IMG/VR virus record: IMGVR_UViG_3300049061_000067
Coordinates: 9-64,008 of that record
DNA length: 64,000 nucleotides
Source: a virus
Reading direction: 5' to 3' (one strand)
The notes under the pieces were generated by a model. The model searched no databases and had not been told where the DNA came from. It saw only the letters and a list, made by a program, of their open reading frames with translations. The position numbers and the translations under genes are program-made. Below, piece after piece: positions 11,243-27,113 of the stretch (position 1 is its first letter; the number at the start of each line of letters is the position of its first letter).

Positions 11243-12553
11243 TTACGCAGCTTTCGTGCGGCCTCGTTTCTTGTTTTCATCTGGTGCGGCAATCATCTTG
11301 TTCTCAGATGGGGCTTCAATTGCCTTGGTCTCACTGTCAGCCCCAATCCATCCGTGTTGCAGTGCTACGGCCGCGGGGATTGATGTGCCCCTACCCGCAT
11401 ACAATGTTACTGCGTCGCTTGGTATGCGCTGATCATTCGTCGCCTTAAAGTTCCCGTCCCGCAATTTCCAGATCCACTTGTCGCAGGTCCACACCTTCAT
11501 ATTGAAATCCTTCCCTCGATAGCGCTCGACTGTTTCAGTAAACGCCTGCCCCAGTCGCTCAAACTCACGCTCCGGTTCAATGGACCGCGCCAGTTCAAGT
11601 ACAATCTGCGAGCGCTCGTGATAGTAGAAGTCGTCAGTTATCAGGCGCACAACTTCATTGAACCATGCTGCTACGTCGTTGCGGTTGATGAAGATACCTG
11701 CTGTGGGGCCAAATGCTTCCTGTAGTCCCAGCGTCGGATGCGCGACTGTTGGAATGCCCGCGCAAGCAGCTTCAATGCCTACACGCCCGTAGGACTCATA
11801 CTCTGACGGCATCAGCAGCACCTTAGTCTTGCGAAAGACATGGCGAATATCAGGTGTGTGTGCCATCCACTCAATGTTACCACTGGCAGGTATTGCGCCG
11901 CCTTTACGCAAGGCGTCAGGCGCAAGAATCATCTGCTCGCCATAGCCGCCCTCAACTGCAAGGAATTCCCTGTCAGGCATCAATCTCGCCAGCGCCTTGA
12001 ATGTTTCAACTCCTTTGCCCGGTGTCGGGTTTACTAGCGTGATCTTCGTGCCGCGCTCGCATTCATAGTGCTCGCGTTCAACCACAGGATGGACTACCAC
12101 TGACGGCGCAAGCCACTCGGCAGGCATGGTCAACCCATTGTACGAGCTTGGGCTTGCCGCCAGCCAGTGCGAGTTGTACACCGTCAACGCGTTCTTGTAT
12201 GGCACACGCGCATCCACGCGCCAGCACATCATCTGCGCGTCGTTGTGGACAAAGTGGACTAGGGGAATCTTGGTTGACATTGCCAGCATCATTGCCTGAT
12301 TGGTGAGATCAAGGTGCGTGACGAGTAAATCCGAACCCGCAACGTAATACTCCAGCCATGACTGCTGACCACGACGAGGCGGGCGAACTACGCTAATGCC
12401 GTCGATTTCGTAAGGGGCGGTCCTGCTGTTCGCGCAGATCACGCGCACCTGATGGCCGCGCTTGACCATTGCGCGCAGGGCTGCGTGCAACGTGGTTTCA
12501 GAACCGGCGCAGTGCTCAGGCGGGAAAAGGTGGATTAGGGCTGTTAGCTTCAT
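11243..12553 (-). CDS. GT4-family glycosyltransferase (retaining, GT-B fold)
   Basis: C-terminal EYESYGRVGIEAACAGIPTVA matches the GT4 E-x7-E/GxP motif. N-terminus MKLTALIHLFPPEHCAGSET matches the GT4 N-terminal pattern. Start chosen at the second Met; the ORF track start is 12592. Confidence 0.65.
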   Translation of the reverse strand: MKLTALIHLFPPEHCAGSETTLHAALRAMVKRGHQVRVICANSRTAPYEIDGISVVRPPRRGQQSWLEYYVAGSDLLVTHLDLTNQAMMLAMSTKIPLVHFVHNDAQMMCWRVDARVPYKNALTVYNSHWLAASPSSYNGLTMPAEWLAPSVVVHPVVEREHYECERGTKITLVNPTPGKGVETFKALARLMPDREFLAVEGGYGEQMILAPDALRKGGAIPASGNIEWMAHTPDIRHVFRKTKVLLMPSEYESYGRVGIEAACAGIPTVAHPTLGLQEAFGPTAGIFINRNDVAAWFNEVVRLITDDFYYHERSQIVLELARSIEPEREFERLGQAFTETVERYRGKDFNMKVWTCDKWIWKLRDGNFKATNDQRIPSDAVTLYAGRGTSIPAAVALQHGWIGADSETKAIEAPSENKMIAAPDENKKRGRTKAA

Positions 12554-12611
12554 TAGCAAGATGGCGGGCGGCTGGCCTTCCGAGGAAAGCAATTAACCGC
12601 CCCTTGCGCCG

Positions 12612-13946
12612 TTACGAATTCGTGCCCGCAAAAAGGTCTATTTTAACTACGGCGGGGGGTCTTAAAACCCCGAACGCCCATCGGCCTTCATACAGGATGT
12701 CAATAATGTTGCGCTCGAAGTGATCGCGGTTTGAGTCGGTGATGTACACCGTTGGATCTTGTCGGTCCCAGACCACCAACTGTTTCAGGTCGCCGGAGTA
12801 GCCGGTGCCTTGCGGAATGACTTCAGACTCGATTACGGGCAGGCCCCAGAGCATCTTTGTGCCCATCTGCATGGGACCGCCAAAGTAGAACTGGCCCTGA
12901 GCGCCACGCGCAAGGTCAATGGTTTCCCAGTCGTAGGGGTTGAGCAGAAAGCCGGTTGAGCGCGCGCGGCCCTGGACCATTGCGGCAGTGCGTGCTTTGC
13001 GGGTCGTTGTTAGCAAGCCGCCGGTAGTGTCCTCGCTGTCGGCAACAAACGGCTGCGGGGTCAGGTTTGGCGTGTTCTCAAGTCCTGTGAAATGGTTCGC
13101 GCCCCCGGGACCGGCAATGATCTCTTCTTCCAGTTCAAGGTCAATGTCTAGCCGCATAAAGTTCGTCATCATCGATTGCAGTTGCGGCGCGTCACTGAGG
13201 ATCGTGCGCGTGGCCTGCATAATGACGGCAATGGTCTTGACACCTGTTTGCACTACTTCCAGCGCCATGCTTGCCTTGGGCTTGAGTGCCAGATCGTCGG
13301 TTGCCGATGTCGCCTCTGGAACAATCTTCGCAGCACGTGTCAGGGAATTAACCCTCACGTACTCGATCAGGTTCGAGCCTGTTTGCAGGATGGTGATCAC
13401 ATCGCGAATTGAAGGCTGACGCAACGGCAGTTCAACAGGCCATGGGCCATAATCGCGGCGCACTAAGCCGCCGCCTGCGGTCACGGGTACCGACATTACC
13501 AGATCCTTGAACGACAGGTCGCCCAGACCAACATCTTTCAGCGCGATGGTAGGCGAGCGACCAAACCTGACCGACGCGTTCATCTCCTTGCCTTCGGGGG
13601 CAATTGACTCGCGCCACGTCTTGAACTCAGGCGCGTTGATAATCGCCTCGCCCATCGTCTTGATTTCAGGCTGCCCGTTGCCGTTGCCATTGCCGTTGCC
13701 AAAGTCAGGGCGGTCCACAGGCTGCGCGAGAAAGGTTTCAATTGCTTTCAGGCGTTTGCTGCGGTCGGCAAACTTGTTCTCTTCGTCAACCTTGGCGCTC
13801 AGTTCCTCAATCGACTTCCAGCGCGTGTCAAGCTCGGCTTGCTGCTCAGTAGTAGGCGTCTCTGCACCCTGCTTGTCCCAGAACGCTTTCTCGGCCTCTA
13901 CCAGCGCCTTAAGCTCCCGTGCTGCTGTTTTCTTCTCTTCCGGCAT
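12612..13946 (-). CDS. Major capsid protein, HK97 fold, with an N-terminal delta/scaffold-like coiled coil
   Basis: 444 aa. The N-terminal ~100 aa are coiled coil and end in a GNGNGNGNG linker, followed by a capsid-like domain. Lies directly downstream of the prohead protease gene with no separate scaffold gene. Confidence 0.65.
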   Translation of the reverse strand: MPEEKKTAARELKALVEAEKAFWDKQGAETPTTEQQAELDTRWKSIEELSAKVDEENKFADRSKRLKAIETFLAQPVDRPDFGNGNGNGNGQPEIKTMGEAIINAPEFKTWRESIAPEGKEMNASVRFGRSPTIALKDVGLGDLSFKDLVMSVPVTAGGGLVRRDYGPWPVELPLRQPSIRDVITILQTGSNLIEYVRVNSLTRAAKIVPEATSATDDLALKPKASMALEVVQTGVKTIAVIMQATRTILSDAPQLQSMMTNFMRLDIDLELEEEIIAGPGGANHFTGLENTPNLTPQPFVADSEDTTGGLLTTTRKARTAAMVQGRARSTGFLLNPYDWETIDLARGAQGQFYFGGPMQMGTKMLWGLPVIESEVIPQGTGYSGDLKQLVVWDRQDPTVYITDSNRDHFERNIIDILYEGRWAFGVLRPPAVVKIDLFAGTNS

Positions 13947-13971: not shown

Positions 13972-15132
13972 CTACGCCAGCGCTCGAATGGCGAGGCTTT
14001 GCATGCGTAGCGATTGAGTCCTTAGCGCAGCCACGTCGATTGACTTCTCTTTCGGCTTGGGTTCGGAAGCGGCAAGTAACTCGTCAAGTGCGTCTCTTGC
14101 CGCCAGCACCTTTTTCCGATTTGAAGCAGAGAGCATCCGGCCTTCCTTGACCCGGTTCTCATGGTTGCGCTGCATATTGCTGGTGTGCTTCGCCAATGCG
14201 GATACCACATCGTCAAAGGACTCAAAGGAGTCGGATACCGGCTGACCTTTGAGGTAAAACTCGTCGTCAGAACTGTTCAAAAACTCTTCAATCTGCGCCG
14301 TGACCAGCGGAATCATTGTCGGCGGGTACTCGTTAAAGGCTTCGGCTACCTTCGCCTTCCAGTCCATGACTACGCCGGTTACATCGGAGTCTTTAGCTGT
14401 CTCGGCAATCTTGCGAACTACGCGGCGCAATGCAGACTCAACCTCCCATGTAGAGGGAGTCGTTTGGGCCATCTCCTCAGCGAGCATGCCTTTTAGTTCA
14501 CCGTCGACAATTGACATCTTCACGCCAGTCGCCATAGCCAGCTTCTGCATAGGTGAAGTCACCAGTGAATCCTCAATCGTTTCGCCTTTAAGCAAGATTC
14601 GGATACGAGAGAACTCCTGAGCCTTTAACAGGTTCGCGGCAAGTCGCTCGGGTTTGACAAACTGTGGCAACTGCTCTTTGTAGTCCTTAGCCTCGATATA
14701 CTGTTTCTGCTTGACGGAGTAACCAAAGGAGAAGCCCATCGTCTTGCCTGCTTCCATACGCTCGCGAGCCTTAGTGCGAATGTTTTGGGAGTCTGGCGTG
14801 GAGTGGAATTGAGACTTTACAAAGAAGCCGTAGTCGTCTTCTTTGGCGTCGACGGGGAACCCTACCGCCTCGGAGAACGACCAATCATGTGAGTGCGCGG
14901 TGAACCCGCTTTGAAGGTAATCTGAGATTCCATCCGCAAAGAAGCCCTTGACAACAATGTCGCCGCCTTCGTCAATCTCGCCAAAGACGCTACGGTATCC
15001 CTCAATCGTTCCTGACCCTTCGTCAGAAACTTTTAATGCTTTCAAGTCGATGAATTTGCGCTCTATCGGCATAAGCAAAAAGCCCGTCGCGGCCTCCATT
15101 GCTGGAAACCACGGCGGGCAGGTCGTCATCAC
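13972..15132 (-). CDS. Prohead protease (HK97/U35-like) with a C-terminal coiled-coil extension
   Basis: N-terminal ~170 aa resemble a Caudovirus prohead protease. Position immediately upstream of the capsid gene. Confidence 0.6.
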   Translation of the reverse strand: MMTTCPPWFPAMEAATGFLLMPIERKFIDLKALKVSDEGSGTIEGYRSVFGEIDEGGDIVVKGFFADGISDYLQSGFTAHSHDWSFSEAVGFPVDAKEDDYGFFVKSQFHSTPDSQNIRTKARERMEAGKTMGFSFGYSVKQKQYIEAKDYKEQLPQFVKPERLAANLLKAQEFSRIRILLKGETIEDSLVTSPMQKLAMATGVKMSIVDGELKGMLAEEMAQTTPSTWEVESALRRVVRKIAETAKDSDVTGVVMDWKAKVAEAFNEYPPTMIPLVTAQIEEFLNSSDDEFYLKGQPVSDSFESFDDVVSALAKHTSNMQRNHENRVKEGRMLSASNRKKVLAARDALDELLAASEPKPKEKSIDVAALRTQSLRMQSLAIRALA

Positions 15133-15161
15133 GGGCTGACGCTTAACTCGCTAGGTTGTTG

Positions 15162-15332
15162 TCAAGTCGCAGTCTTCTGTCGCAAGCCTTTCACGCGGTC
15201 GATCAGACTGTACAGCTGCCGCTCAATCTTTTGTAGCTCTTGCTTCGTGTCCTGGCGCACATCTGGTTTGACTAAAGGAGCACTCTGCGAATTCAGCAGT
15301 GTTGGTTCGGGCTTAGGGGATTGCTGGCTCAT
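15162..15332 (-). CDS. Small coiled-coil protein (56 aa), translationally coupled
   Basis: ATGA overlap with the stop of 15329-15619. Below the ORF-track size cutoff. MSQQSPKPEPTLL...ELQKIERQLYSLIDRVKGLRQ. Confidence 0.3.
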   Translation of the reverse strand: MSQQSPKPEPTLLNSQSAPLVKPDVRQDTKQELQKIERQLYSLIDRVKGLRQKTAT

Positions 15333-15619
15333 TGAATAGTGTCAGGCCAAACCTCAGCAACCGTAACAGGGCTAAACCCGTCTGGTACTTCCGCTGAAAG
15401 TCTTAGAGGCTGTAACGGCCGATTGAACGTCAAGACTTCAAGGTAAATATAGCCCTGTTTAAGAATCTGCCGCTTCTCTTCCTCACTTAAAACCCAACGC
15501 GTCAGTACCGTGCCGTCCTCAAGCTTTACAGCCGGAAGAGGCAGATACTCAGGCTGGTCTTTGGCATAAGTAACCTCAGATACATCAGCGTTAGGAATAA
15601 CCGGACTTACAGGCTGCAT
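15329..15619 (-). CDS. Hypothetical protein
   Basis: ORF track. Confidence 0.4.
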   Translation of the reverse strand: MQPVSPVIPNADVSEVTYAKDQPEYLPLPAVKLEDGTVLTRWVLSEEEKRQILKQGYIYLEVLTFNRPLQPLRLSAEVPDGFSPVTVAEVWPDTIQ

Positions 15620-15709
15620 TTCATTCTCCTAAGTCGCGGGCCTTTCAGCCATCACGCCACACTTTAACACAACCATACGGTCAGAATGCAACAAAAGTTA
15701 TTTCGCTAG

Positions 15710-15988
15710 TCAGTAAATCGGCTTAATTTCGTTCAGAGGTAACTTCTCGTTAAAGACTATTTCAACACCCCACAACGTAGAGCAGGGCTCCGTGCGTGGC
15801 AGTAAAGCGAACCTACTTTCAATCTCCCAGAGGGTCACGTGACTCATCTCAAATCGATTGGGAGTGACTTCCTCCTTGCGCTTCGTATCTTGAAGCAAAG
15901 CGAATAGTTTCCGCAAGTCTGGCAAGCCGTTATCAGGATCGTCGGGATTACTTGATGTGTACGTTACGTCCAATTGATAACCTTCCAT
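15710..15988 (-). CDS. Hypothetical protein
   Basis: ORF track. Confidence 0.4.
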   Translation of the reverse strand: MEGYQLDVTYTSSNPDDPDNGLPDLRKLFALLQDTKRKEEVTPNRFEMSHVTLWEIESRFALLPRTEPCSTLWGVEIVFNEKLPLNEIKPIY

Positions 15989-15989
15989 C

Positions 15990-16400
15990 CTATTCCTTTG
16001 GTATTTCCGGCGATGGCATCCAGTAGCGCACGTCTACCCCTCTGCGCATCCCCTCTCGGGCGTCAACGTACACAAATCCCGCGTCGTCAAAGTACTCTCC
16101 GCTGATAGCCGCATCGGAGTAATTGAGATCATATTCAGCAAGCAATACACGTTGCGCATTCTCTGGCAACTTTTCCTTAACGCTAATAAAGTCAGACGCT
16201 AGCCATGCAGCCTCAATGCTCTGCTTGTCAAACTGACACTGATAACAGCCTTCTTCTTTCCAGCGGAGCTGAAACTGGCAAGGACACAACATCACACGTT
16301 GATACAGCCGGCGTAGCGCTTGGGCAACGGGATCAACACGGTCTCCCGCAGACCCACTAAAGTTTTCGATCTGCCGCTCAATTTCAGGCCTCATAATCAA
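15990..16400 (-). CDS. Hypothetical Cys-containing protein
   Basis: ORF track. Adjacent to the fucosyltransferase gene. Confidence 0.4.
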   Translation of the reverse strand: MIMRPEIERQIENFSGSAGDRVDPVAQALRRLYQRVMLCPCQFQLRWKEEGCYQCQFDKQSIEAAWLASDFISVKEKLPENAQRVLLAEYDLNYSDAAISGEYFDDAGFVYVDAREGMRRGVDVRYWMPSPEIPKE

Positions 16401-17169
16401 TTATCTGCCAGCCTTCGCTGTAGATATCCTCGCCAGTGATCGGCGTATATCGCGGTCCAAACCACGGGCGTGGTGCAATCACGCGCTTGTTTGATGCCTC
16501 ACCCAGAATCGCTGCCATTGCGCTGTAGGCTGAGTTGGCTATGATGAACGATGCGCATCTTTTAAGTAACCGGAAATCATCAAGGTAGTTGCGTCCCTCG
16601 CTGTAATCAACGTCACTACCAAACATTCGCTTGCACTCGGCAATATCGTCGCTGAAGACAAGAAACCGAGGCTTAGGTCTTCCAAACATGGTTGCGTCGT
16701 AATAGAACCGTTGCATTGCTGCCCGGTAGTAACTCTCAGGCACACGCGGGTGATAGCCGCCAGTGTAATCGCCGCGCCTGACATGAATGCCGACGTAATC
16801 GCTTTGTGCAGGCTCGTCAGTCATGCGCAGCCACCAGCAAACCTCGTCAAGACAGTGGACGAAATAGCGCACACTTTGCAGGTGCCCGCTGAGGCTGACA
16901 CTCTCCGTTAGGCGTACGTCGTGATAGCCCCAGTCAATGAAACGGTCAGGCAGTGTTGGACCATCGTAGACAGGCAGTGGGTTAACAAAGTGACGATATA
17001 CGTCGCAGTCCTCAGTTGAGCCAAAGCGTTGTTGATGGTCATGATTGATCCAGCGCGGAAAGGCGAAGTCAAAGCCGTTGCGACGAGCAATCCCTATCGT
17101 CGACGCCACCTGAAACAGACCGTTCGCGAATCGGCCGTAGCTGCCTAGGGCAGAAAATGTCACTATCAC
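16384..17169 (-). CDS. GT11-like alpha-1,2-fucosyltransferase
   Basis: N-terminal GRFANGLFQVAS resembles the GxGNQmFQyA motif. HVRRGDY matches the HxRRxD motif of fucosyltransferases. Also VFSDD and ANSAYSAMAA motifs. Confidence 0.6.
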   Translation of the reverse strand: MIVTFSALGSYGRFANGLFQVASTIGIARRNGFDFAFPRWINHDHQQRFGSTEDCDVYRHFVNPLPVYDGPTLPDRFIDWGYHDVRLTESVSLSGHLQSVRYFVHCLDEVCWWLRMTDEPAQSDYVGIHVRRGDYTGGYHPRVPESYYRAAMQRFYYDATMFGRPKPRFLVFSDDIAECKRMFGSDVDYSEGRNYLDDFRLLKRCASFIIANSAYSAMAAILGEASNKRVIAPRPWFGPRYTPITGEDIYSEGWQIIDYEA

Positions 17170-18119
17170 GACTGCTCACCCCACACTTGATGCACCATGC
17201 CTCCCCCTGATCCAGCATCTCCCACTCGTGCGCGATACCAGTCGAAGGTTGAGCAGAGTCCGTCATACAGGCTGATTTTAGCATGCCAGCCAAGCGCAGC
17301 GAGGCGCGTGCTGTCCAGTAGCTTGCGTGGCGGACCATCGGGCTTGCTGGCATCAAACTTTATCTCGCCACGATAGCCGACAACCTCAGCAATCATGTGG
17401 GCCAGTTCACTGATGGTGACTTCCTGCCCGGAACCTACGTTGATTGGCTCGCTGTCATTGTATTCAGCCATCAGGATTATCAGTGCATCAGCAAGATCGT
17501 CAACGTGAAGGAATTCGCGCAGCGCCTTACCAGTGCCCCAAAGCGTGATTGAGCGATCCTCGTTGCATGCTGCCCGGTACAGCCGCGACATTAGCGACGG
17601 GATCACATGCGCGTCGATGGAGTCAAAGTGATCGTTAGGGCCGTAGAGGTTGGTAGGCATGGCGCAGATGGCGTTAAAGCCGTATTGCTTGCGGTAAGCC
17701 TGGCACATCTTCAGTCCCGCAATCTTGGCAATTGCGTACCACTGGTTTGTCGGCTCAAGTGGGCCGGTGAGTAGTGCGTCTTCACTGATTGGCTGTTGTG
17801 CGGCACGCGGGTAGATGCAGGATGAGCCGAGGAACAGAAGTTTCCCGCAATCGTTTAGCCGGGCAGCGTTAATAACATTGCACTGGATTAGAAGATTGTC
17901 GCGGATGAAGTCAGCGGGACAGGTGGAGTTCGCGTGAATGCCGCCGACCTTGGCCGCCGCGAGATAGACATGCTGGATCTTATTACCCCAAAAGAAACCG
18001 TAGGTGTCTGCCTGGCTTCTTAGGTCAAGTTGCGCGTGGGTATGTGTAACAGCATCAGGTATACGCCGCAGCAATGCACTACCAACAAGTCCAGTGTGAC
18101 CTGCAATGTAAACGCTCAC
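17166..18119 (-). CDS. fcl: GDP-L-fucose synthase (GDP-4-keto-6-deoxy-D-mannose 3,5-epimerase/4-reductase)
   Basis: MSVYIAGHTGLVGSALLRRI (Rossmann GxxGxxG) resembles the E. coli Fcl N-terminus. Size and pattern of a short-chain NAD(P)-dependent epimerase/reductase (YxxxK region present). Confidence 0.75.
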   Translation of the reverse strand: MSVYIAGHTGLVGSALLRRIPDAVTHTHAQLDLRSQADTYGFFWGNKIQHVYLAAAKVGGIHANSTCPADFIRDNLLIQCNVINAARLNDCGKLLFLGSSCIYPRAAQQPISEDALLTGPLEPTNQWYAIAKIAGLKMCQAYRKQYGFNAICAMPTNLYGPNDHFDSIDAHVIPSLMSRLYRAACNEDRSITLWGTGKALREFLHVDDLADALIILMAEYNDSEPINVGSGQEVTISELAHMIAEVVGYRGEIKFDASKPDGPPRKLLDSTRLAALGWHAKISLYDGLCSTFDWYRARVGDAGSGGGMVHQVWGEQS

Positions 18120-18575
18120 TTATAGTGCTCCGTACTCATGCAGATGAATTACCGCCGGTCGATGGCCGTGTGGCCGCTGGCCTGCTTGAAACGCACGCCA
18201 CTCGAATTGCTGGTCCAACTTGCTCCAGTGCTTGTCCATGCCCTGCCAGATGTCGGGTAGCAGGTTCATTAGTTCGCCGGAGAACCTGACGCATCCAAAG
18301 CTATGAAAGATGCCAATGCCATGTTGATCGTACGAGTACGCACACCACGACGCAGGGCAAGCGGCTAACTCTTCCAATGCGCCCGGCCACGGCAGGATGT
18401 CGTGCTCGACTAGGACAACTGCTTCGCGTTGCCGCCATAGCTCCGTGAGTAGGGTCCAGTAAGCATCATCACTGGCACTGACGTCCACATAGCACGGATT
18501 GTAACGCCTGAGTAGCCATTGTTGCTCCAGCCGCAACCTCGTGTAGGGAACAACAACCTTCATGCCCGTAGCCAA
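18120..18575 (-). CDS. Hypothetical protein (151 aa)
   Basis: ORF track. Start abuts the stop of the upstream gene. Confidence 0.4.
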   Translation of the reverse strand: MATGMKVVVPYTRLRLEQQWLLRRYNPCYVDVSASDDAYWTLLTELWRQREAVVLVEHDILPWPGALEELAACPASWCAYSYDQHGIGIFHSFGCVRFSGELMNLLPDIWQGMDKHWSKLDQQFEWRAFQAGQRPHGHRPAVIHLHEYGAL

Positions 18576-18584
18576 GCCAGTCCG

Positions 18585-18815
18585 CTAATCATCATTACAC
18601 TGTTTCAGCGCTGGGGTATCACGAGAACACTGGTCCACGGCCTTGCGAGCTACGGCGTCACCGGCACGTTCCAGTGACTTGCCAGCGCTGCGGGCTACGG
18701 GACAGGGGGCTTGGCGCAGTGCAGCACCGGCTAATCCTGCCGCGTGGCCAGCGGTTACGGCCCCTGTGCGCATTGTGTTGGTGTAGTGGTCGGTTAGTGT
18801 TTTCTTCTTGCTCAT
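18585..18815 (-). CDS. Hypothetical small protein
   Basis: ORF track. Confidence 0.3.
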   Translation of the reverse strand: MSKKKTLTDHYTNTMRTGAVTAGHAAGLAGAALRQAPCPVARSAGKSLERAGDAVARKAVDQCSRDTPALKQCNDD

Positions 18816-18833
18816 ATGGCTTGCTTCCTTTGT

Positions 18834-19466
18834 CTATTTGCTCAACCAGGATCGATTAAAGTACAGCTCCCACTCCAGCAACGGATGCGGCTCACACTCG
18901 GGGAAAAGATGCCCGTAATCCTGCCTGACGAGGATCAGGTTACCTGTGTGACACAAGACGAAGTAGCCATGCTCCAGCGCTGCCACCGTCATGGTCCAAT
19001 AACCCACGCCGCCGTCGCTGTTGATTCGCTCGTCAGGCGGTTCGATGCTGGAGTCAATTTCGACTATCACGATCTTGGGGCGGGCTTGCATGCCGCAGAA
19101 GATTGCATAGTCGCCGCCATCAGTGTCCAAACTAAGCAGGTCGCAGCGATCACCAACAAAGGCGTTGACGTTGCAGGCGTCTACGCGGGAGCACTGGCAA
19201 CGGACAAGCGGATTATCTCGCCAGTTCTCCTTGCACTTGAGGTAGAGATTGTAGTCGGATTCAACGAACAGGCCGGACCGGCCAGCGTTTTCCAATAGCA
19301 GCGCCGTGTTTGAGCAGAACAACCCGTCTGAGCCGCCAATCTCGACACAGTAGCCCTGGTTCTGGTTTAGACGCACAAGCGCTTCCAGTAGCACGCCTTC
19401 TTCGCCGTTCTGCGAAAACTTATAGTTGCGGGCATATTGGCGTAGGAAGCTAAGCATGGCCCACAC
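18834..19466 (-). CDS. FkbM-family methyltransferase (putative sugar O-methyltransferase)
   Basis: CVEIGGSDGLFCSNT...LFVESD pattern resembles the SAM-binding core of the Methyltransf_21/FkbM family. Confidence 0.5.
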   Translation of the reverse strand: MWAMLSFLRQYARNYKFSQNGEEGVLLEALVRLNQNQGYCVEIGGSDGLFCSNTALLLENAGRSGLFVESDYNLYLKCKENWRDNPLVRCQCSRVDACNVNAFVGDRCDLLSLDTDGGDYAIFCGMQARPKIVIVEIDSSIEPPDERINSDGGVGYWTMTVAALEHGYFVLCHTGNLILVRQDYGHLFPECEPHPLLEWELYFNRSWLSK

Positions 19467-19908
19467 TCAGATTCCATCCCAACTTACGTCCGTTCAAAAC
19501 AAAGCCCCTGATATTTAGGTTTTTAGAAATCTCAAGATGTAGTAAAAGCTCCGCCTGTCTTCCGTACTCGTCATGGAAACTCGCATGCTCGTTATTAGTT
19601 AGATTCCTGCGAACATAATTCCAATCCGGATGTTCAGCACCTTTGGGTAGGGAGACTTCGCAGCCGCAGCAACCGTAAAACGTAAACACCAGTGGACAGG
19701 TACGAGTACGGATTAAATCCTGTTTCCACTCCCCCGTCTCATCCATAAGTTGACGGGCAGTCGCATCAAGGAACAATTGACAGAATTCTCTTGCGCAAAG
19801 TGGCTCCCGTGTAAAGGGATTTCCAGCGATTGCCCTTCCCTCTACACAGGCTATTGCTATCAGACCCGCGCTCTTCGCTATTAGATCTCGCCTAGTTATA
19901 TCAGCCAT
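19450..19908 (-). CDS. Hypothetical Cys-rich protein with a Tat-like N-terminus (TRRDLIAKSAGLIAIA)
   Basis: Twin-arginine-like motif followed by a hydrophobic stretch. CCGC cluster. Confidence 0.35.
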   Translation of the reverse strand: MADITRRDLIAKSAGLIAIACVEGRAIAGNPFTREPLCAREFCQLFLDATARQLMDETGEWKQDLIRTRTCPLVFTFYGCCGCEVSLPKGAEHPDWNYVRRNLTNNEHASFHDEYGRQAELLLHLEISKNLNIRGFVLNGRKLGWNLSVGHA

Positions 19909-20188
19909 TGAGCTTTAACCTTTCTTTCAACACCGCCGCCTTTGCCGGACAAACCCGCCGTGGCATCAGATTACCACAGTACTCGCAGAGCATCAGGCTG
20001 TAACTGATATTGAATCCCCTGCCGCTCTGGAATCCGCGCCCATCGTCAGGATGTCTGCCACGCCCGCTTGCACGCTGGCGAGTCATGTAGCATTCCAGTT
20101 GCGAGGCGTCTAACCCGTTGGCGCGAACCAGATCAAGTAGCGCGCGCTCTTCAGATGCAAGCAGAGGTTGCAGGGCTTGGTTCGTCAA
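19901..20188 (-). CDS. Hypothetical protein
   Basis: ORF track. Overlapping, coupled start. Confidence 0.35.
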   Translation of the reverse strand: MTNQALQPLLASEERALLDLVRANGLDASQLECYMTRQRASGRGRHPDDGRGFQSGRGFNISYSLMLCEYCGNLMPRRVCPAKAAVLKERLKLNG

Positions 20189-20502
20189 AGGTTCCGATCT
20201 TCTCTAAAGTTTTTCAGCACACCCGTACGGTATCTCTCCTGATTTCGCTGCTCGGTAATTACCGGACATATTGCTTCACCTACGGCGGGACTCTTAACCA
20301 CTTCTTCACCAAACTCTGTAACTTCGTAGAGATGCTCACGGAAAAGGTGAATACCGGGAACATCGTAGTCCGTGTTTAACTCTGCCCGCATTAATTCAGG
20401 TGACGGGTAGTAAAGCAGCGTGTTATCCGACTTGCGTAACCATACGTTACATTGCGCACAGTATCCGCCGTAATACCTTAGCTTCACGCTATTTCCTTCC
20501 AT
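20185..20502 (-). CDS. Hypothetical protein
   Basis: ORF track. Confidence 0.35.
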   Translation of the reverse strand: MEGNSVKLRYYGGYCAQCNVWLRKSDNTLLYYPSPELMRAELNTDYDVPGIHLFREHLYEVTEFGEEVVKSPAVGEAICPVITEQRNQERYRTGVLKNFREDRNL

Positions 20503-21260
20503 TCATGATTGCGGCGTCGATGGTGGCTGAACAGGATTGGATAACTGTCAGACGCATACTCCGGCAGCTTCTCGTAAACAAACGCACCATTGTTGTACGA
20601 AGCGGGCCAATAATGCAAAGTTAGACCATTGCGATACGCCATTGTTGTCAGGATTGCCTGATCATGCCGATGCTCGCGGAACTCAGGATGGTTAGGCGCA
20701 CGGCTTGGCGAGTCGTCTATCAGTCTACCACCCTCAAACAGGCACCACTTGAGCCATTCCTTTACAAACGCACGAGAGTAGTCAGAGACACGGAAGAAGA
20801 TCACGCTGGCTTGGCATTGCTTGCCGAAGCGCTCCCAGCTTAATTCATTGCCGTCGACGTCGCGCGCGTTGGTCCACGGCCAGATCGCGTCAATAACATC
20901 CCGCTTGCACCAGTGTGCGTGCTTCCAGTTGTTACCGAACAGGAAGATGTCCTGGTCCATGCGGTTGATGATGTGAGAGACAGGAGCGATGAACTCGATA
21001 CCAGCGTCGGCGTAGACAACAACGTCGTTAGATTTGGCGTATTGAAGTGTGTAGCCTATCAACTCAGCCTTCCACGCCCAATAGCCAAATCCTCTCGGCT
21101 TGTCGAACAGAACCTTGTTTTCGTAGTAGCACTTCAGCCTTTTGAATGATTCCCACGTCCACACGGCACGACGGTCAATCCCCTGAGCGACTGCGCTTAA
21201 GGCGCACACCTCCCGTGCGCGACTCATGCCGTCGTCTGACATGGTAACGATCCATTTCAT
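20484..21260 (-). CDS. Putative glycosyltransferase (GT32 / Caps_synth-like, DxD type)
   Basis: VVVYADAGIEF motif and overall resemblance to sugar-binding glycosyltransferases of capsule-synthesis type. Confidence 0.45.
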   Translation of the reverse strand: MKWIVTMSDDGMSRAREVCALSAVAQGIDRRAVWTWESFKRLKCYYENKVLFDKPRGFGYWAWKAELIGYTLQYAKSNDVVVYADAGIEFIAPVSHIINRMDQDIFLFGNNWKHAHWCKRDVIDAIWPWTNARDVDGNELSWERFGKQCQASVIFFRVSDYSRAFVKEWLKWCLFEGGRLIDDSPSRAPNHPEFREHRHDQAILTTMAYRNGLTLHYWPASYNNGAFVYEKLPEYASDSYPILFSHHRRRNHEWKEIA

Positions 21261-21418
21261 CTCAATCTCCCATCACGTCCGCGTAGCGGCGGTGCGCACT
21301 TAGTACACAATGGGCAATGCCGCTGATCGCATTTAGAATTGTGGCAACTCATACAGCCGTGCGGTCTAACTATTTCTCGTCTAACTCTTTCTCGCTTCTC
21401 ATGTTTTGGCTGTCTCAT
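21257..21418 (-). CDS. Micro-ORF, 53 aa, 6-Cys peptide (C-x2-C-x4-C ... C-x2-C-x2-C)
   Basis: ATGA overlap at both ends: the upstream TM ORF stop and the downstream GT start. Below the ORF-track cutoff. Confidence 0.35.
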   Translation of the reverse strand: MRQPKHEKRERVRREIVRPHGCMSCHNSKCDQRHCPLCTKCAPPLRGRDGRLR

Positions 21419-21597
21419 GATCTCAGCCTCGCGTCTGACGCCTCAATCTCTGCGTACCATCGCCTGTATTCCTCGCGTGCAATCAGTGTCGCGTCAACCT
21501 CGCGCTGCTCTTTGCGACGAAGAACTGGTCCCACGACTAGGGCAATCAGGCCATAACAAGCCATTACGAATAGCGCTATCTGTGTTCCCGCTGTCAT
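21415..21597 (-). CDS. Small single-TM membrane protein (60 aa)
   Basis: ORF track. ATGA overlap with the GT25 gene stop. Confidence 0.4.
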   Translation of the reverse strand: MTAGTQIALFVMACYGLIALVVGPVLRRKEQREVDATLIAREEYRRWYAEIEASDARLRS

Positions 21598-22208
21598 CTC
21601 AGCCTTGCCTCCGACAACTCGAATATTTCCGTGTAATCATCAACCTCGTTACGTTGCCAGAGACTACTAACACGCGGCCTCTGCCACGCTACCATTGGTG
21701 CTACCACGAAAGCATTCAACTCAGGCAGCAGGTCACTCAGCGCGTTATCAAACATCTGTGCGCTAAATTCCGGCTGGTGCTCCAGTATACGTCTGACACA
21801 TGACTTGTGATAAGCAATTGCATGCGTGGTCCATGCGGCGCGTACTCGCCACAGGTGGTTGCTGAAACGCTCCGGGGCGGGCTCGCCATTGTTCCAGCAG
21901 ACCAGGTTTGCACCCAAGTAGAGGATATCCCAGTCGGCAGGGAGTTCGCTGATTGCTTGCGGCAGGTGGTTTAAGTCACGAAATACAACATCATCTTCAA
22001 GATGCAGCAGGCGATTATCGTCGGAGAACAGGAAGTCAAGCAGAATGTTGCGCTCGCTGTGGTTGAATGATTGATGTGGACCGATCTCTTTCACGGCATT
22101 GTACTTTTCCACGGTTAGGCCCACACGCTGGAATTCGGCGCATGCCTTGAGCCACTCGCCAGGGTTGGCAGTGAGACAGACACGGCGCTGGAAGAATGAC
22201 CAGTTCAC
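21594..22208 (-). CDS. GT25-family glycosyltransferase (LPS/LOS beta-1,4-galactosyltransferase-like)
   Basis: Resemblance to the GT25 (Lic2B-like) N-terminal region ...HLEDDVVF...DILYLG. Confidence 0.5.
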   Translation of the reverse strand: MNWSFFQRRVCLTANPGEWLKACAEFQRVGLTVEKYNAVKEIGPHQSFNHSERNILLDFLFSDDNRLLHLEDDVVFRDLNHLPQAISELPADWDILYLGANLVCWNNGEPAPERFSNHLWRVRAAWTTHAIAYHKSCVRRILEHQPEFSAQMFDNALSDLLPELNAFVVAPMVAWQRPRVSSLWQRNEVDDYTEIFELSEARLR

Positions 22209-22338
22209 TTACCACCTGCTTGTTCCTTGGACCACCCGCTGCTTCACGCTCAGCCACGGGTATTGCTGAGACGCAAAGCTGTAATGGTCCAAGGTGGCCA
22301 AAAGTTAGACCGCTAGTCCCACGCCTCCCCTGACGCAA

Positions 22339-22563
22339 TCATGCGCAAGGTTCGCTATTTCCCTTCATCGCTTCATTAATAACGTTAGTAGTTAATTTAT
22401 CAAGCAGAAATTGAAACCGACCGGAGCTACCCGTAGTTAACAGCACAACAGCCTCACAGGTTTTAAGTTCATCACCGGCCTCAATACACATAATTAATTC
22501 AGGGATCTCCGCTTCTAACCTTCGTAGATCACGTATTAAGGCTTGGCGTCTCTCCAGTCGCAT
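22339..22563 (-). CDS. Hypothetical protein
   Basis: ORF track. Confidence 0.35.
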   Translation of the reverse strand: MRLERRQALIRDLRRLEAEIPELIMCIEAGDELKTCEAVVLLTTGSSGRFQFLLDKLTTNVINEAMKGNSEPCA

Positions 22564-22832
22564 CCATACTCTCCGATCTTACGTTCTAGCAGGATTATTT
22601 GTCGCAGCCATGTCCGACTAGCTACAGGCCCGGGTCCACAAAAATCATCTCTGGGCCTGCGTGCTACGACGCTTTTCAGCGTCGGCTGCGAGCTTGGGCA
22701 ACTACTGAGTCATGTACTTGGCGTCCCTTTCCATGCTTGTTCGCGGCCCAAGCCCCTCAACGCAGCACCCTAGTTCAAGAGGGCCTTCACTACCCCTGCC
22801 GCCGAATGCGGCGAGCGCTGCGCTGATCCACA

Positions 22833-23066
22833 CTACTTGTTACAACTGCCGCCGTGACACATGATCAGGCAGCATTCATACTCGGACTGACAGATAGACA
22901 AGCATTCAGCGTTGCCGTTGCACGCTGCCTGACAGGCGTTGCGGTCCGTGATGCAGTGGGCACAGCCTGCCGGAGCGGCTTCCGTGTTGCTGGTGGTCCA
23001 TGCTTGGGTTGGAGTCAGTAACATGACTACAGCAAGCAGCATTAAAGCAAGGGTTCGTTTCATCAT
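22833..23066 (-). CDS. Secreted cysteine-rich peptide (signal peptide plus ~55-aa mature part with 10 Cys)
   Basis: MMKRTLALMLLAVVMLLTPTQAWT signal peptide. Strong RBS AAGGAAAC upstream. Start set at MMKR rather than the ORF-track start. Confidence 0.5.
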   Translation of the reverse strand: MMKRTLALMLLAVVMLLTPTQAWTTSNTEAAPAGCAHCITDRNACQAACNGNAECLSICQSEYECCLIMCHGGSCNK

Positions 23067-23388
23067 TTGAGTTTCCTTTTGGTTTGAGGTTGCGTAACTG
23101 TTACCACTTTTATCAAAGATTAAAGTTGCGGAGCAGGCGTGTGCCAACGCCTCGTTCTTAAGTCCCCACTCCGGCGTTATTTCGCGACCTTGGCTAATGT
23201 CCGTCGCACCTTTCGGAACGGGTTTTCCCCAGCGGCAACCTGTGGAGACCTCCGCAAACTTGTCAAAGATTGAATTGCGCGGGCGCGGTAGTCGAGTGGC
23301 ACTAAGAGGCTAGCATCACGGGAGCCTGCCTACCGTTCCTATCCCGCTGTTTAGTCGCATTGCTGCCGCCCGCGCAAACTTAAAATTG

Positions 23389-23811: not shown

Positions 23812-23960
23812 TACTGCCTGCCCTCAAGCACCGCAACACGGCGCTGGAGGTCGCGGATTTCTGAATCTTTTATGGAAAACAATATGCTAGTCACTATTGC
23901 TATCATAAAAAGTAGTACCAGCAAAAACCTGATGTCGCCACCATATCCTCGCTCGCTCAT
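23811..23960 (-). CDS. Micro-membrane protein, 49 aa (single TM plus coiled tail)
   Basis: TAATG overlap with the downstream gene. Below the ORF-track cutoff. Confidence 0.3.
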   Translation of the reverse strand: MSERGYGGDIRFLLVLLFMIAIVTSILFSIKDSEIRDLQRRVAVLEGRQ

Positions 23961-24794: not shown

Positions 24795-24853
24795 ATCCCA
24801 CGTGGCTGTTTACGGTAAAAGCGCTCATTTTTGCCCTCGCGTGCTGTTGGTGG

Positions 24854-25045
24854 TCACATCAATTCTTCATCAGACGCCGATATAGCACAAGAAACAGATC
24901 TGGCTCGCTCCTGTTTAACGTACCGTTCTACCGCAATTACTATCTCCGCGCTCACTGTACGCCGATTTGTTTCCGCCAGTTTCTTAATGCCGTTGAGCAC
25001 CTTGACGGGGAAATAGATGTGCATGTCCTTGATCTCTCGCTTCAT
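24854..25045 (-). CDS. Ribbon-helix-helix (Arc/MetJ/CopG-like) DNA-binding protein
   Basis: MKREIKDMHIYFPVKVLNGIKKLAETNRRTVSAEIVIAVERYV is a typical RHH beta-strand plus two helices. Confidence 0.55.
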   Translation of the reverse strand: MKREIKDMHIYFPVKVLNGIKKLAETNRRTVSAEIVIAVERYVKQERARSVSCAISASDEELM

Positions 25046-25423: not shown

Positions 25424-25432
25424 CGAGGCCAA

Positions 25433-26225: not shown

Positions 26226-27113
26226 CTATTGATTTATCCAAACGTGAAAGCACCTGCACCAGTCGCCCCCGGCGCACTCGGGATTTGGCGCAGGTTGTAG
26301 ATCGTCTTCGTTAGTCGCCGTCTTGCCATCTTCATCTGCGCATGGCTGACAAACGTTCTGGTCTAACAGCGCACTGTACTCCACGCGCTCCCACTCATCA
26401 CGGCGGTTTTCGGCTTCGTCGCTGCGACCAATGCTGATAACACGATTAGCCAGCCCTGTAGCCGCACGGTCGATATAGCCGACTGAGCCGGTAGCAATCT
26501 CGCTGGTGACAGCAGCAATCAGCGCTGCGCCTGTCAGACCCAACAGCGAGTGACGCGCGGCGGCGGCGATAATGCGTGATTGCACGTCGTTGGTAACGCG
26601 GCTGGTGGTGAGATCGGTGAGCAGGTCAAGCTCGTCAAAGTCGTCTGCGTCAGGCGCGTCAGCCTTCTGGCCCAACTCGGCAGCCACCAGCATGCGTCCC
26701 TGTCGATGCACCGCCACAAGCTGCTTGCTTAGGTCCGTGCGCATCGCGTCAGGCACCTGCAACACCAACTCGTGATAGTCAGCAGGCTTCACTTTCCTGA
26801 TGCGTTTCAACCCGTTCGTGACTAGCTCGCTGCGCAGGTCCAGCAGCACTTTGCCAATGGACTCTTTGGCTGACTCCTGTGCCTGAGCAACGCCCTTGAC
26901 GGCAATCTTCTCGTGCTCTTTAGGCTCACGGCTAAGCGTTAGACCGTCGTAGTCGAAGGACTTGCGCTCGAGGTGGTTCAAGCCAAGGTGAGTGTAGAAG
27001 GCGGTGGCTTTAGCTTCGCCGTGTGTGTCGATAGCCTGCTGCCAGCCATGTGCCAAGCGCAAGGCAGTTGCCGCTTCAAGTTTGAGTTGTAGTACTTTAG
27101 CTTGCAGGCTCAC
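26226..27113 (-). CDS. Head morphogenesis protein (Mu gpF / SPP1 gp7 family)
   Basis: Position downstream of the portal gene. ~295 aa with a conserved C-terminal Cys cluster (CQPCADEDG...CAGGDWCRC), typical of the family. Confidence 0.6.
   Translation of the reverse strand: MSLQAKVLQLKLEAATALRLAHGWQQAIDTHGEAKATAFYTHLGLNHLERKSFDYDGLTLSREPKEHEKIAVKGVAQAQESAKESIGKVLLDLRSELVTNGLKRIRKVKPADYHELVLQVPDAMRTDLSKQLVAVHRQGRMLVAAELGQKADAPDADDFDELDLLTDLTTSRVTNDVQSRIIAAAARHSLLGLTGAALIAAVTSEIATGSVGYIDRAATGLANRVISIGRSDEAENRRDEWERVEYSALLDQNVCQPCADEDGKTATNEDDLQPAPNPECAGGDWCRCFHVWINQ

Follow-up and report, generated by a model that had tools for sequence, protein, structure and literature searches.

A fucose synthesis, transfer and methylation pathway among the head genes of an uncultured podophage: a candidate for virion glycosylation

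Genes for a pathway that would make GDP-L-fucose, transfer it and methylate a sugar lie among the head genes in the window, a stretch of 64,000 nucleotides of viral DNA. The pathway is best explained as a component of the head-gene array that is conserved within a clade of uncultured ∼58–69 kb podophages. We propose, with moderate confidence, that this phage-encoded pathway targets the virion and most likely the major capsid protein.

Organisation of the locus

All head and cassette genes are carried by the minus strand, in the order TerL, portal, MuF-like gene, block, protease and capsid protein (Table 1), which matches the predicted same-strand position between portal/gpF-like and protease/capsid genes. 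The MuF-like gene that bounds the block upstream has orthologues at the same position in relatives, as seen by synteny comparison. Start and stop codons of neighbouring genes overlap by 4–19 nt between 22208 and 15990, in keeping with the translational coupling that had been claimed, and from 22208 to 10852 all intergenic gaps are ≤29 nt except for one of 90 nt. Given the many 4-nt overlaps and short gaps, the glycan genes form one continuous series with the protease, capsid and fibre genes. The non-structural block extends from ∼15140 to 26200 and is thus roughly 11 kb long, not 6.5 kb as in the original prediction. 'Island' was also a misnomer, since the block is kept across the clade and its GC content is that of the remaining genome.

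Several micro-ORFs are present, as had been noted. The 152-aa protein, described earlier as Tat-like and Cys-rich, indeed carries an N-terminal twin-arginine signal (TRRDLI at aa 5–10), which its homologues share, and three invariant cysteines; it has no match in Pfam and its location varies between relatives. The 95-aa ORF occurs in almost all relatives, mostly just upstream of the protease region. Further upstream, the 63-aa ORF is preceded by a sigma-70-like site (25082–25054, TTGACA-17-TACATT), such sites being no more numerous than in shuffled sequence, and the two may serve the block as a regulator and a promoter of its own. A separate upstream promoter for the cassette, if present, would count against the virion as target.

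Table 1. Features of the head-gene array and the glycan cassette in the window
Feature	Coordinates	Strand	Evidence or remark
GT4 (GT-B) glycosyltransferase, right after capsid gene (19-nt gap)	11243..12592	-	Pfam
HK97-fold major capsid protein	12612..13946	-	Pfam PF05065, E 1.2e-30
Prohead serine protease (S78) with C-terminal extension	13972..15132	-	Pfam PF04586, E 1.4e-8
56-aa conserved ORF directly upstream of protease	15162..15332	-	present in most relatives
DUF551 protein, accessory	15990..16400	-	Pfam PF04448, 24.2 bits (cut-off 22)
GT11 family (alpha-1,2-fucosyltransferase-type) glycosyltransferase	16384..17169	-	Pfam PF01531, phrog_2644, HVRRGD
GDP-L-fucose synthase (Fcl/GMER)	17166..18119	-	NCBIfam NF047922, PDB matches, motifs
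151-aa protein adjoining Fcl (0-nt gap)	18120..18575	-	no family or PDB match; only 26 clusters
FkbM-family SAM-dependent methyltransferase, 210 aa	18834..19466	-	PF05050 via orthologues; VEIGGSDG at aa 41–48
152-aa twin-arginine (Tat-type) signal protein, variable accessory gene	19450..19908	-	alignment A9
95-aa conserved ORF, no assigned function	19901..20188	-	tblastn synteny
105-aa ORF, no assigned function	20185..20502	-	weak orthologues in L012, L015
258-aa protein, large uncharacterised family	20484..21260	-	present in every relative covering the region
53-aa Cys-rich micro-ORF	21257..21418	-	sequence; 4-nt overlaps
60-aa micro-ORF, one transmembrane segment, 4-nt overlaps with neighbours	21415..21597	-	KD19 2.43
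GT25-like GT-A glycosyltransferase, 204 aa	21594..22208	-	AlphaFold model and Foldseek; EDD at aa 71–73
Sec-signal Cys-rich peptide	22833–23147		sequence
63-aa ORF, ribbon-helix-helix-like by eye, candidate regulator	24854..25045	-	sequence; orthologues in L012, L015, L016, L028
MuF-like head morphogenesis gene, upstream block boundary	26226..27113	-	Pfam Phage_Mu_F, E 5.7e-4, below cut-off
Portal	27110–28654	-	
TerL	28707–30044	-	

Enzymes of the cassette

The Fcl assignment made earlier is firmly backed by NCBIfam (E 2e-135; 451 bits, under the equivalog cut-off of 500), by solved Fcl structures (PDB 7ll6, 5.8e-105; E. coli 1e6u, 2.3e-98) and by the motifs GSSCIYP, YAIAK and AHVIP. The enzyme would convert GDP-4-keto-6-deoxymannose to GDP-L-fucose. 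Family searches found no GMD among window ORFs of at least 245 aa, in line with its predicted absence, and for a genome without GMD the precursor must be supplied by the host. The neighbouring GT11 enzyme matches Pfam PF01531 (E 2.5e-14; 53.7 bits against a cut-off of 23.9) and, across its full length, phrog_2644 (5.8e-35), and the HxRRxD motif claimed for it is found as HVRRGD at aa 129–134. Its nearest homologues in cultured phages belong to cyanomyoviruses (29–35% identity). The 151-aa protein next to Fcl has homologues at 46–48% identity in nucleotide-metabolism modules of other phages and is therefore not specific to glycan pathways.

The FkbM methyltransferase holds at family level: the window protein alone scores 18.1 bits with PF05050, under the cut-off of 22.7, while 18/18 orthologues match this family (best 8.4e-8). 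For the enzyme named GT25 in the original prediction Pfam gives no match and none of its 329 homologous clusters is annotated; assignment as a GT25-like GT-A enzyme is supported by its AlphaFold model (pLDDT 90.3). With Foldseek the top match in PDB is COLGALT1/GLT25D1 (E 1e-10, TMq 0.64–0.73), in BFVD the top matches are viral GT25/COG3306 proteins, and hhalign to the Pfam-verified GT25 of a relative (L024) gives E 1.7e-4. Within its EDD, E71 and D73 are invariant in both alignments and D72 in alignment A3. A Bodo saltans virus (giant virus) protein of 494 aa, annotated as alpha-1,2-fucosyltransferase, contains a GT25-like domain that matches this model (BFVD). A fifth glycosyltransferase lies beyond the region first delimited (15990–22563): the GT4 enzyme, which matches Glyco_trans_1_4 (6.5e-12), Glycos_transf_1 (2.8e-11) and Glyco_transf_4 (4.7e-8) in Pfam. 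None of the cassette enzymes has a transmembrane segment (maximum KD19 <1.6) and all are predicted to be soluble.

The 258-aa protein had been read as a GT32-like DxD glycosyltransferase, and this reading was rejected: it has no match in Pfam, NCBIfam, PHROG or PDB, and D85 alone is invariant and lies in a YADAG motif, which is not DxD. The AlphaFold model is poor (pLDDT 55). Its family comprises 4968 representative clusters at E≤0.001, with neither a Pfam model nor a solved structure, and distant members carry a fused FkbM (P0302) or GT2 (P0347, P0354) domain. The protein is probably a glycan-pathway enzyme.

Conservation in relatives and the capsid tail

The cassette is found at the same place in >20 related metagenomic loci, whose capsid proteins are 45–99% identical to that of the window. 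The gene order of the clade is GT25-like, the 258-aa family, FkbM, (Fcl), GT11, protease, capsid protein, GT4. In all 18 loci that extend far enough, the GT4 gene comes after the capsid gene, another ORF intervening in three of them (L001, L008, L014). Extra FkbM copies are present in L004, L014 and L024, and extra GT25 genes also occur in relatives. One relative (L024) carries GMD (TIGR01472, 508 bits against a cut-off of 415) together with Fcl in the same slot, and in two others (L023, L025) Fcl is replaced by GDP-mannose 3,5-epimerase (PDB 2c59, 4.8e-108), which leads to GDP-L-galactose. Judged by these gene contents, the donor-sugar module in relatives is exchanged, not lost, and the predicted sequence of GDP-L-fucose synthesis, transfer and methylation is well supported.

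Capsid proteins of the clade end in G-x-N-S in 21/21 cases (G-T-N-S in the window, encoded at 12615–12626). Relatives without the cassette end in DLTA or AGS, and in the nearest of them the capsid proteins stop earlier. The tail is the candidate glycan acceptor, although its link to the cassette comes from a single clade and is not phylogenetically independent. In mycobacteriophages it is the C-terminal ends of the capsid and tail tube subunits that carry glycans, as summarised in PMC12619734, citing Freeman 2023.

Target of the pathway and known systems

If the virion is the target, the glycan genes would share the late expression of the protease and capsid genes, and one transferase would begin the glycan on the capsid protein, probably at the clade-specific C-terminal tail. 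GT4 is the candidate starter because it follows the capsid gene throughout the clade. The GT25-like enzyme might then add a hexose such as galactose, GT11 would cap it with alpha-linked L-fucose (or with L-galactose in the relatives with GDP-mannose 3,5-epimerase), and FkbM would O-methylate a sugar. The resulting methylated deoxyhexose coat would shield or stabilise the particle or alter its adherence. The solved structure that best matches the GT25-like enzyme, COLGALT1, belongs to a protein glycosyltransferase, which counts for virion glycosylation.

The original preference for the virion over O-antigen conversion is supported by the clade-wide position in the head module, GT4 after the capsid gene, soluble enzymes, the capsid tail and the lack of integrase and membrane glycan machinery. 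Among ORFs of at least 245 aa and further replication-region ORFs, all of at least 129 aa, no integrase, Gtr/Wzx/Wzy-like, thymidylate-synthase-like or TET-like gene was found. It should be noted, however, that the gap between the MuF and protease genes also houses unrelated accessory genes (for exported proteins and DUF551, joined in relatives by homing endonucleases), which makes position by itself a weaker argument than was assumed. The gap may be a permissive insertion site, which counts against virion glycosylation, as does the plus-strand insert at 25076–25954 upstream of the cassette.

A less probable but still appreciable alternative is that the cassette remodels a host envelope glycan in infection, so that LPS, capsule or EPS would receive methylated fucose or L-galactose. 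The substrates of the soluble transferases would be undecaprenyl-linked or lipid A-core intermediates on the cytoplasmic side of the membrane, and superinfection would be blocked or progeny kept from adsorbing to debris. Most GT11, GT25 and GT4 enzymes of bacteria serve the synthesis of LPS, O-antigen or exopolysaccharide, and Pfam's own name for GT25 is 'LPS biosynthesis protein'. The nearest cultured-phage GT11 homologues lie beside pstS and hli, outside structural modules, and cyanomyovirus clusters of epimerase, GT11 and GT25 genes in auxiliary-gene regions were read by their authors as cell-wall modification (PMC9602691; PMC12801897). The block also encodes Tat-/Sec-exported proteins and small membrane proteins, and since peripheral O-antigen transferases are likewise soluble, the absence of membrane segments does not decide between virion and envelope. 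Against envelope remodelling, the scanned ORFs include no integrase/lysogeny module, Gtr, Wzx, Wzy, WaaL or initiating phosphoglycosyltransferase, and five enzymes with donor synthesis are much machinery for altering an existing host glycan. Moreover, the gap-free position against the protease and capsid genes, with GT4 after the latter, is kept across deep divergence, which is unusual for host-conversion morons.

It is improbable that the cassette modifies some other product, such as the secreted Cys-rich peptide, in a glycocin-like manner, or a non-virion phage or host protein. The block does encode this Sec-signal peptide and the Tat-signal Cys-containing protein, but the exported proteins are patchily conserved and shift position among relatives while the enzymes are constant, and no glycocin-type S-glycosyltransferase or transporter was detected. 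Least probable of all is glycosylation of phage DNA (hypermodified bases) to evade restriction: fucosylated DNA is not known to occur, and the cassette lies within the head-gene array and not in the replication module. Phage glycosyltransferases are able to attach diverse glycans to DNA as hypermodifications (bioRxiv 10.1101/2023.12.21.572611), other phages have homologues of the 151-aa ORF alongside their genes for thymidylate synthase, dCMP deaminase and RNR, and a helicase–DNA methylase fusion is encoded in the genome; however, the scanned window ORFs include no thymidylate-synthase-like hydroxymethylase, 5mC dioxygenase (TET/JBP) or C5-methyltransferase, and thus there would be no hydroxylated base to glycosylate.

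Returning to virion glycosylation, the novelty claimed for fucose or methyl-fucose in this role has to be reduced, as it is not wholly unprecedented in view of PBCV-1 (PMC7019647) and cluster O mycobacteriophages (PMC11600133). In the latter the capsid and tail tube are modified by an O-methyltransferase and three glycosyltransferases. Among actinobacteriophages, Che8 together with Corndog and further cluster O phages (Freeman et al. 2023, summarised in PMC11600133 and PMC12619734) have, like the phage described here, soluble glycosyltransferases and an O-methyltransferase; there an HK97-type capsid protein and the tail tube are the targets and bear their glycans at subunit C-termini. The best cultured-phage matches of the capsid protein in the window are Gordonia and Mycobacterium phages (about 35% identity), and the gp80-like protein has homologues in 639 mycobacteriophage records. 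In contrast to those systems, here there is a dedicated nucleotide-sugar step (Fcl; GMD or GDP-mannose 3,5-epimerase in relatives) with GT11/GT25-type enzymes, and a GP4-like podophage carries the genes within its head operon.

The chlorovirus PBCV-1 encodes GMD, which the window lacks, as well as GMER and its own glycosyltransferases; it produces GDP-L-fucose itself, and fucose is present in its major capsid protein glycans (PMC7019647). Its multi-domain enzyme that joins galactosyl- and fucosyltransferase activities has a parallel in the GT25-like/GT11 pair of the window and in the Bodo saltans virus protein. However, PBCV-1 is a giant virus of eukaryotes whose capsid is of the double-jelly-roll type and whose glycans are N-linked and atypical, and it is evolutionarily unrelated to the head module described here. 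In cyanomyoviruses S-SM2, S-H68 and S-SCSM1 (PMC9602691) GT11 adjoins an SDR epimerase and GT25, and S-SCSM1 also has GMD and Fcl. These clusters differ in that they occupy auxiliary-gene regions, beside pstS and hli, instead of a structural operon; with about 25% identity to Fcl, their epimerases are not its orthologues, and the role assumed for them is host surface modification. The only cultured-phage homologue of the GT4 enzyme is gp20 of Streptomyces phage TurkishDelight, a tandem GT4 with 33% identity. TurkishDelight differs in being a siphophage without a fucose pathway and in having a single fused double-GT4 protein, which is uncharacterised, but its gene likewise lies in the structural operon, between the capsid and major tail genes.

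Enzymes of the glycan cassette

Between its MuF-like and prohead protease genes, and once more beyond the capsid gene, the phage carries a cassette of glycan genes on the minus strand (coordinates in the table below). Our data support GT11, Fcl, FkbM and GT25-like proteins there, i.e. four of the five enzymes of the original prediction, while the fifth, a GT32, was wrong. The GT11 protein scores well above the PF01531 cut-off (53.7 versus 23.9 bits, covering profile positions 162–297 of 298) and matches phrog_2644, 'glycosyltransferase', over its full length (5.8e-35). It has HVRRGD (aa 129–134), GRFANGLFQ (aa 12–20) and SAYSAMAA (aa 213–220), which correspond to the donor-binding HxRRxD, the N-terminal G-x-x-G-N-x-x-F-Q-like and the C-terminal S-x-F-S-x-x-A-A-like motifs of such enzymes; the expected GT11 family protein with HxRRxD is thereby borne out. 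In CAZy, GT11 enzymes use GDP-fucose to move L-fucose in alpha-1,2 linkage onto a galactose acceptor.

The Fcl protein is a near miss on the NCBIfam equivalog NF047922 (451 bits, under the cut-off of 500; E 2e-135) with no close competitor, the next-best NCBIfam family reaching only 88 bits. Over aa 3–300, its full length, it aligns with solved Fcl structures (7ll6, 5.8e-105; E. coli GMER 1e6u, 2.3e-98), and it keeps the motifs GSSCIYP, YAIAK and AHVIP, with the residues that in E. coli GMER form the Ser/Tyr/Lys triad of catalysis and the Cys/His pair of epimerisation. Fcl had been predicted correctly, and so had the absence of GMD, which was not found among window ORFs of 245 aa or more.

The window's FkbM-like protein alone stays below the PF05050 cut-off (18.1 versus 22.7 bits; TIGR01444, E 0.076), but all 18 of its 18 orthologues match PF05050 (best 8.4e-8) and it contains a SAM motif I-like VEIGGSDG, which makes the predicted family probable.

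For the GT25-like protein no match was obtained in NCBIfam, PHROG or Pfam, including GT25 itself (PF01755); the predicted family is nevertheless the nearest one by structure. Its confident AlphaFold model (pLDDT 90) finds the GT25 collagen galactosyltransferase COLGALT1 as best PDB fold match (E 1e-10) and mostly GT25/COG3306 proteins in BFVD, and hhalign relates its family to a Pfam-verified GT25 of a related metagenomic contig (L024:5915-6511; E 1.7e-4). In the EDD at aa 71–73, E71 and D73 are invariant in both alignments of the family and D72 in one of them (A3). On the model, this is a GT25-like enzyme of GT-A fold with an acidic D/E-x-D motif. A domain of the 494-aa Bodo saltans virus protein A0A2H4UUT1, annotated in BFVD as alpha-1,2-fucosyltransferase, also matches the model (TMq 0.83), and this protein would be a natural fusion of two activities co-encoded in the phage cassette.

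The 258-aa protein is the one taken for a 'GT32-like DxD' enzyme, an assignment that we reject. It has no match in Pfam, NCBIfam, PHROG or PDB, ten distant homologues have no Pfam match across the homologous region, and DxD is not conserved: the sole invariant acidic residue of the family is D85, within YADAG. Its AlphaFold model is poor (pLDDT 55), and hhalign showed no relationship to the GT25-like or the 151-aa family. The family is large (1405 clusters in one search, 4968 representatives in an exhaustive one), and its distant members include fusions with FkbM methyltransferase or GT2 domains, which link it with glycan metabolism in general rather than with a given reaction. When profiles of the 204-aa GT25-like, 258-aa, FkbM-like and 151-aa families were run against PDB sequences, all matches were spurious but for one hint, COLGALT1 at E 1.2.

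No family assignment was obtained for the 151-aa ORF that abuts Fcl. Homologues with 46–48% identity occur in other ~72 kb phages (L107, 8001-8450; L109, 8001-8486) next to genes for Thy1, thymidylate synthase, dCMP deaminase, RNR and DNA polymerase, and this neighbourhood suggests a role unrelated to glycans.

Position in the genome and conservation in the clade

The window is essentially a whole phage genome, which also encodes a D5-type primase-helicase and a PD-(D/E)XK nuclease; no tRNA genes were found in it. The non-structural stretch is longer than the 6.5 kb (15990-22563) delimited originally, amounting to about 11 kb. From 22208 to 10852 all intergenic gaps are of 29 nt or less, with a single exception of 90 nt, so the glycan genes run on directly into those for the protease, capsid and fibre proteins. 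Micro-ORFs in the block and start/stop overlaps of 4–19 nt, both noted before, are real, and the twin-arginine N-terminus of the Tat-like protein is common to its homologues. Upstream of 22208 spacing is looser, and small membrane ORFs, a Sec-signal Cys-rich peptide, a Phage_ABA_S protein, a plus-strand insert and an RHH-like ORF are found there. Site counts in a promoter and terminator scan did not exceed those in shuffled sequence, hence the operon boundaries are drawn solely from gene spacing.

Features of the window and their coordinates
Feature	Coordinates	Strand	Remark
Large terminase	28707-30044	-	
Portal	27110-28654	-	
MuF-like protein	26226-27113	-	
Non-structural ORFs	~26200 to 15140		about 11 kb, between MuF-like gene and protease
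Plus-strand insert	25076-25954	+	short set of ORFs
Sigma-70-like site	25071-25100	+	
Sigma-70-like site	25082-25054	-	divergent from the preceding site
RHH-like ORF	24854-25045	-	63 aa
Cys-rich peptide	22833-23147	-	
GT25-like enzyme	21594-22208	-	204 aa
258-aa protein	20484-21260	-	
Tat-like protein	19450-19908		
FkbM-like methyltransferase	18834-19466	-	
151-aa ORF	18120-18575	-	
Fcl	17166-18119	-	
GT11	16384-17169	-	
S78 prohead protease	13972-15132	-	
HK97-type major capsid protein	12612-13946	-	
GT4 glycosyltransferase	11243-12592	-	
Homologue of podophage GP4 fibre protein gp80 ('fibre I')	10852-11229	-	after GT4 in transcription direction
Homologue of podophage GP4 fibre protein gp77			after GT4 in transcription direction
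DNA polymerase III beta-clamp	45026-46108		
Helicase-DNA methylase fusion	46467-48869	+	800 aa
PAS-domain protein	53522-53956	-	
SPFH/Band-7 protein	56478-57284	+	

With the protease as probe, 27 related viral contigs were collected, 25 of them members of the clade of uncultured podophages to which the window belongs, the long ones being 58–69 kb. Wherever a contig spans the region, a tblastn synteny map shows a single gene order, placed between MuF and protease throughout: GT25-like, 258-aa family, FkbM, (151-aa ORF and Fcl), GT11, small conserved ORFs, protease, capsid protein, GT4. This order is kept even where capsid identity to the window is only 45–48%, and in GC content the block does not differ from the remainder of the genome. 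Both the synteny throughout the clade and the even GC contradict a recent horizontal island, and the original term 'island' does not fit the block.

No cultured phage of the INPHARED set was found to have the cassette, and megablast with the region produced no match among cultured phages. INPHARED searches returned one uncultured record for the 204-aa protein, cyanomyoviruses only (~30% identity) for GT11, and for GT4 only Streptomyces phage TurkishDelight, whose GT4 also lies in the structural operon; this protein, gp20 (7945-9981), consists of two GT4 units in tandem, and its gene lies between those for the major capsid and the major tail protein. Cyanophage cassettes were rejected as orthologues, GT11 alone being common to both. 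No close relative turned up among genome contigs, where the most similar capsid proteins, from Streptomyces prophages and Chloroflexota MAGs, are 36–44% identical; all of these sources are without the cassette.

While the transferase core is constant, the donor and tailoring modules around it are swapped, and this combination supports the fucose assignment. Fcl is missing from about a third of loci, in which GT11 is still present. In L024, GMD (7808-8782; Pfam 5.3e-134, TIGR01472 508 bits versus 415) lies directly upstream of Fcl, and the locus also has a Pfam GT25 of canonical type, another FkbM-like gene and one for a Methyltransf_11 protein. Two further related contigs have a GDP-mannose 3,5-epimerase in the Fcl slot (L023, 8219-9265; L025, 5893-6876; 4.8e-108 to Arabidopsis GME). 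This enzyme yields GDP-L-galactose, an analogue of GDP-L-fucose with a hydroxyl at position 6, and does not depend on GMD. The gene content thus implies that donors would differ among relatives, being GDP-L-galactose in some and GDP-L-fucose made wholly by the phage in others. Co-occurrence of GT11 with Fcl, GMD or the epimerase is circumstantial evidence that its donor may be GDP-L-Fuc or GDP-L-Gal. Extra FkbM copies occur in L004 and L014. By analogy, such module swapping resembles the diversification of exposed surface glycans.

The other ORFs confined to particular lineages encode homing endonucleases of HNH or GIY-YIG type (L017, 5497-6312; L008, 3276-4139 and 12566-13303; L003, 5409-5993), the HNH/NUMOD4 ones above the Pfam cut-off and the GIY-YIG-like ones weak and below it. 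In several relatives they interrupt the glycan cassette or separate GT4 from the capsid gene.

Proposed target of the glycan

The mechanism that we consider best, and to which we would give an even chance, is that a phage-made fucose-type glycan is placed on the capsid protein of the virion. The precursor would come from host GMD, or in relatives from phage GMD or GME, and Fcl would turn it into GDP-L-fucose. GT4 or another transferase would begin glycan assembly on the capsid protein, with the C-terminal tail as the probable site; the GT25-like and 258-aa enzymes would extend it, GT11 would add L-fucose, and FkbM would methylate one of the sugars. The enzymes are identified by the matches described, whereas the order of steps, linkages, acceptor and timing we infer.

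Several observations favour the virion as target. The position in the head array is conserved and gap-free, with GT4 following the capsid gene wherever sequence reaches. None of the six cassette enzymes has membrane segments (maximum KD19 <1.6), and the window ORFs that were scanned revealed neither an integrase nor Gtr, Wzx, Wzy or an initiating phosphoglycosyltransferase. Among solved structures, the one closest to the GT25-like enzyme belongs to a glycosyltransferase that acts on proteins. Finally, the capsid protein ends in G-T-N-S (window 12615-12626), and a G-x-N-S ending is present in all 21 of 21 clade capsid proteins, while the nearest cassette-less ones end in DLTA or AGS. Against this target, the MuF-protease gap tolerates unrelated cargo, and the tail correlation comes from one clade. 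The original interpretation is partly supported: its fucose enzymology stands up well, while virion glycosylation draws support from the conserved head-operon slot and from the failure to find an integrase in the scanned ORFs, and is weakened by the permissive gap and by GT families typical of LPS/O-antigen synthesis.

The latter point belongs to the main rival, that the cassette remodels a glycan of the host envelope. Its GT families are classic LPS/O-antigen enzymes, and cyanophage homologues lie in auxiliary-gene regions and have been read as host-surface modifiers (PMC9602691; PMC12801897). The soluble enzymes and the head-operon position recorded above speak for the virion instead, and we regard envelope remodelling as the less likely of the two targets. 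Lysogenic conversion in particular is rejected, since no integrase was found; nor does the cassette resemble Gtr/Oac-type O-antigen conversion, with no integrase or Gtr-like protein in the scanned ORFs and enzymes devoid of membrane segments. Glycosylation of hypermodified DNA bases is unlikely: homologues of the 151-aa ORF do sit in nucleotide-metabolism modules of other phages, but neither a TS-like hydroxymethylase nor a C5-MTase with TET was found among ORFs of at least 245 aa and replication-region ORFs, all of at least 129 aa.

If capsid glycosylation is extended to the whole clade, the cassette would be a self-sufficient modular protein-glycosylation pathway at the core of the head operon, putting a methylated L-fucose/L-galactose glycan on the G-x-N-S tail of the HK97-fold capsid protein and diversified by donor-module swaps (Fcl alone, GMD with Fcl, GDP-mannose 3,5-epimerase) and by GT25 and methyltransferase gains. 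We hold this wider proposal tentatively, as somewhat short of an even chance.

A GNGNGNGNG run is present at aa 83–91 of the capsid protein (13674-13700), near the likely boundary of delta domain and mature protein.

Relation to known systems and other features of the genome

To our knowledge, phage particles glycosylated by their own enzymes have so far been shown in a few actinobacteriophages only, where virion glycosylation blunts antibody recognition. Phage-encoded GTs and an O-methyltransferase linked to structural genes, the genomic criterion of this type of glycosylation, are present here as well. In the only phage systems known to have been studied by experiment, glycans are reported at the C-termini of capsid and tail-tube subunits (PMC12619734), and cluster O phages pair an O-methyltransferase with three GTs (PMC11600133). 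The virus PBCV-1 itself produces GDP-L-fucose for the glycans on its capsid (PMC7019647). We found no earlier description of a clade-wide, head-operon-embedded, donor-swapping fucose/L-galactose cassette or of the large uncharacterised 258-aa family that belongs to it.

If the virion is the target, the cassette would parallel, on the phage particle, the diversification of O-antigens. It would also be the first of its kind beyond the actinobacteriophages, carried clade-wide with its own sugar-nucleotide supply in the capsid operon of unrelated soil podophages. Virion glycosylation would then be widespread and ancient among tailed phages, and a C-terminal acceptor rule would be indicated. The 258-aa family, with its ~5000 cluster representatives, would gain a likely function, and GT4, GT25-like, GT11, FkbM and Fcl/GMD/GME would make up a compact soluble enzyme set with which protein nanoparticles could be given fucosylated or methylated glycans. 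Should the cassette act on the host surface instead, this would be a rare virulent phage with envelope-remodelling genes kept in its late structural operon.

Some other features of the genome deserve mention. The plus-strand insert has reversed GC skew and breaks the minus-strand array just past MuF; the RHH-like ORF adjoins it, with the two divergent sigma-70-like sites alongside. The Sec-type signal peptide of the Cys-rich protein is followed by a mature peptide of ~50 aa very rich in cysteine, which is 83% identical in two related contigs (L017/L029) and missing from most other relatives. In the 800-aa fusion, a helicase C-terminal domain is joined to an N6/N4 DNA methylase. The genome encodes a beta-clamp, and no DNA polymerase was detected there; PAS-domain and SPFH/Band-7 proteins are also encoded. 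The gp80-like protein has ~45% identical homologues in 639 mycobacteriophage records, some of them annotated 'head protein', which ties the structural module to actinobacteriophages.
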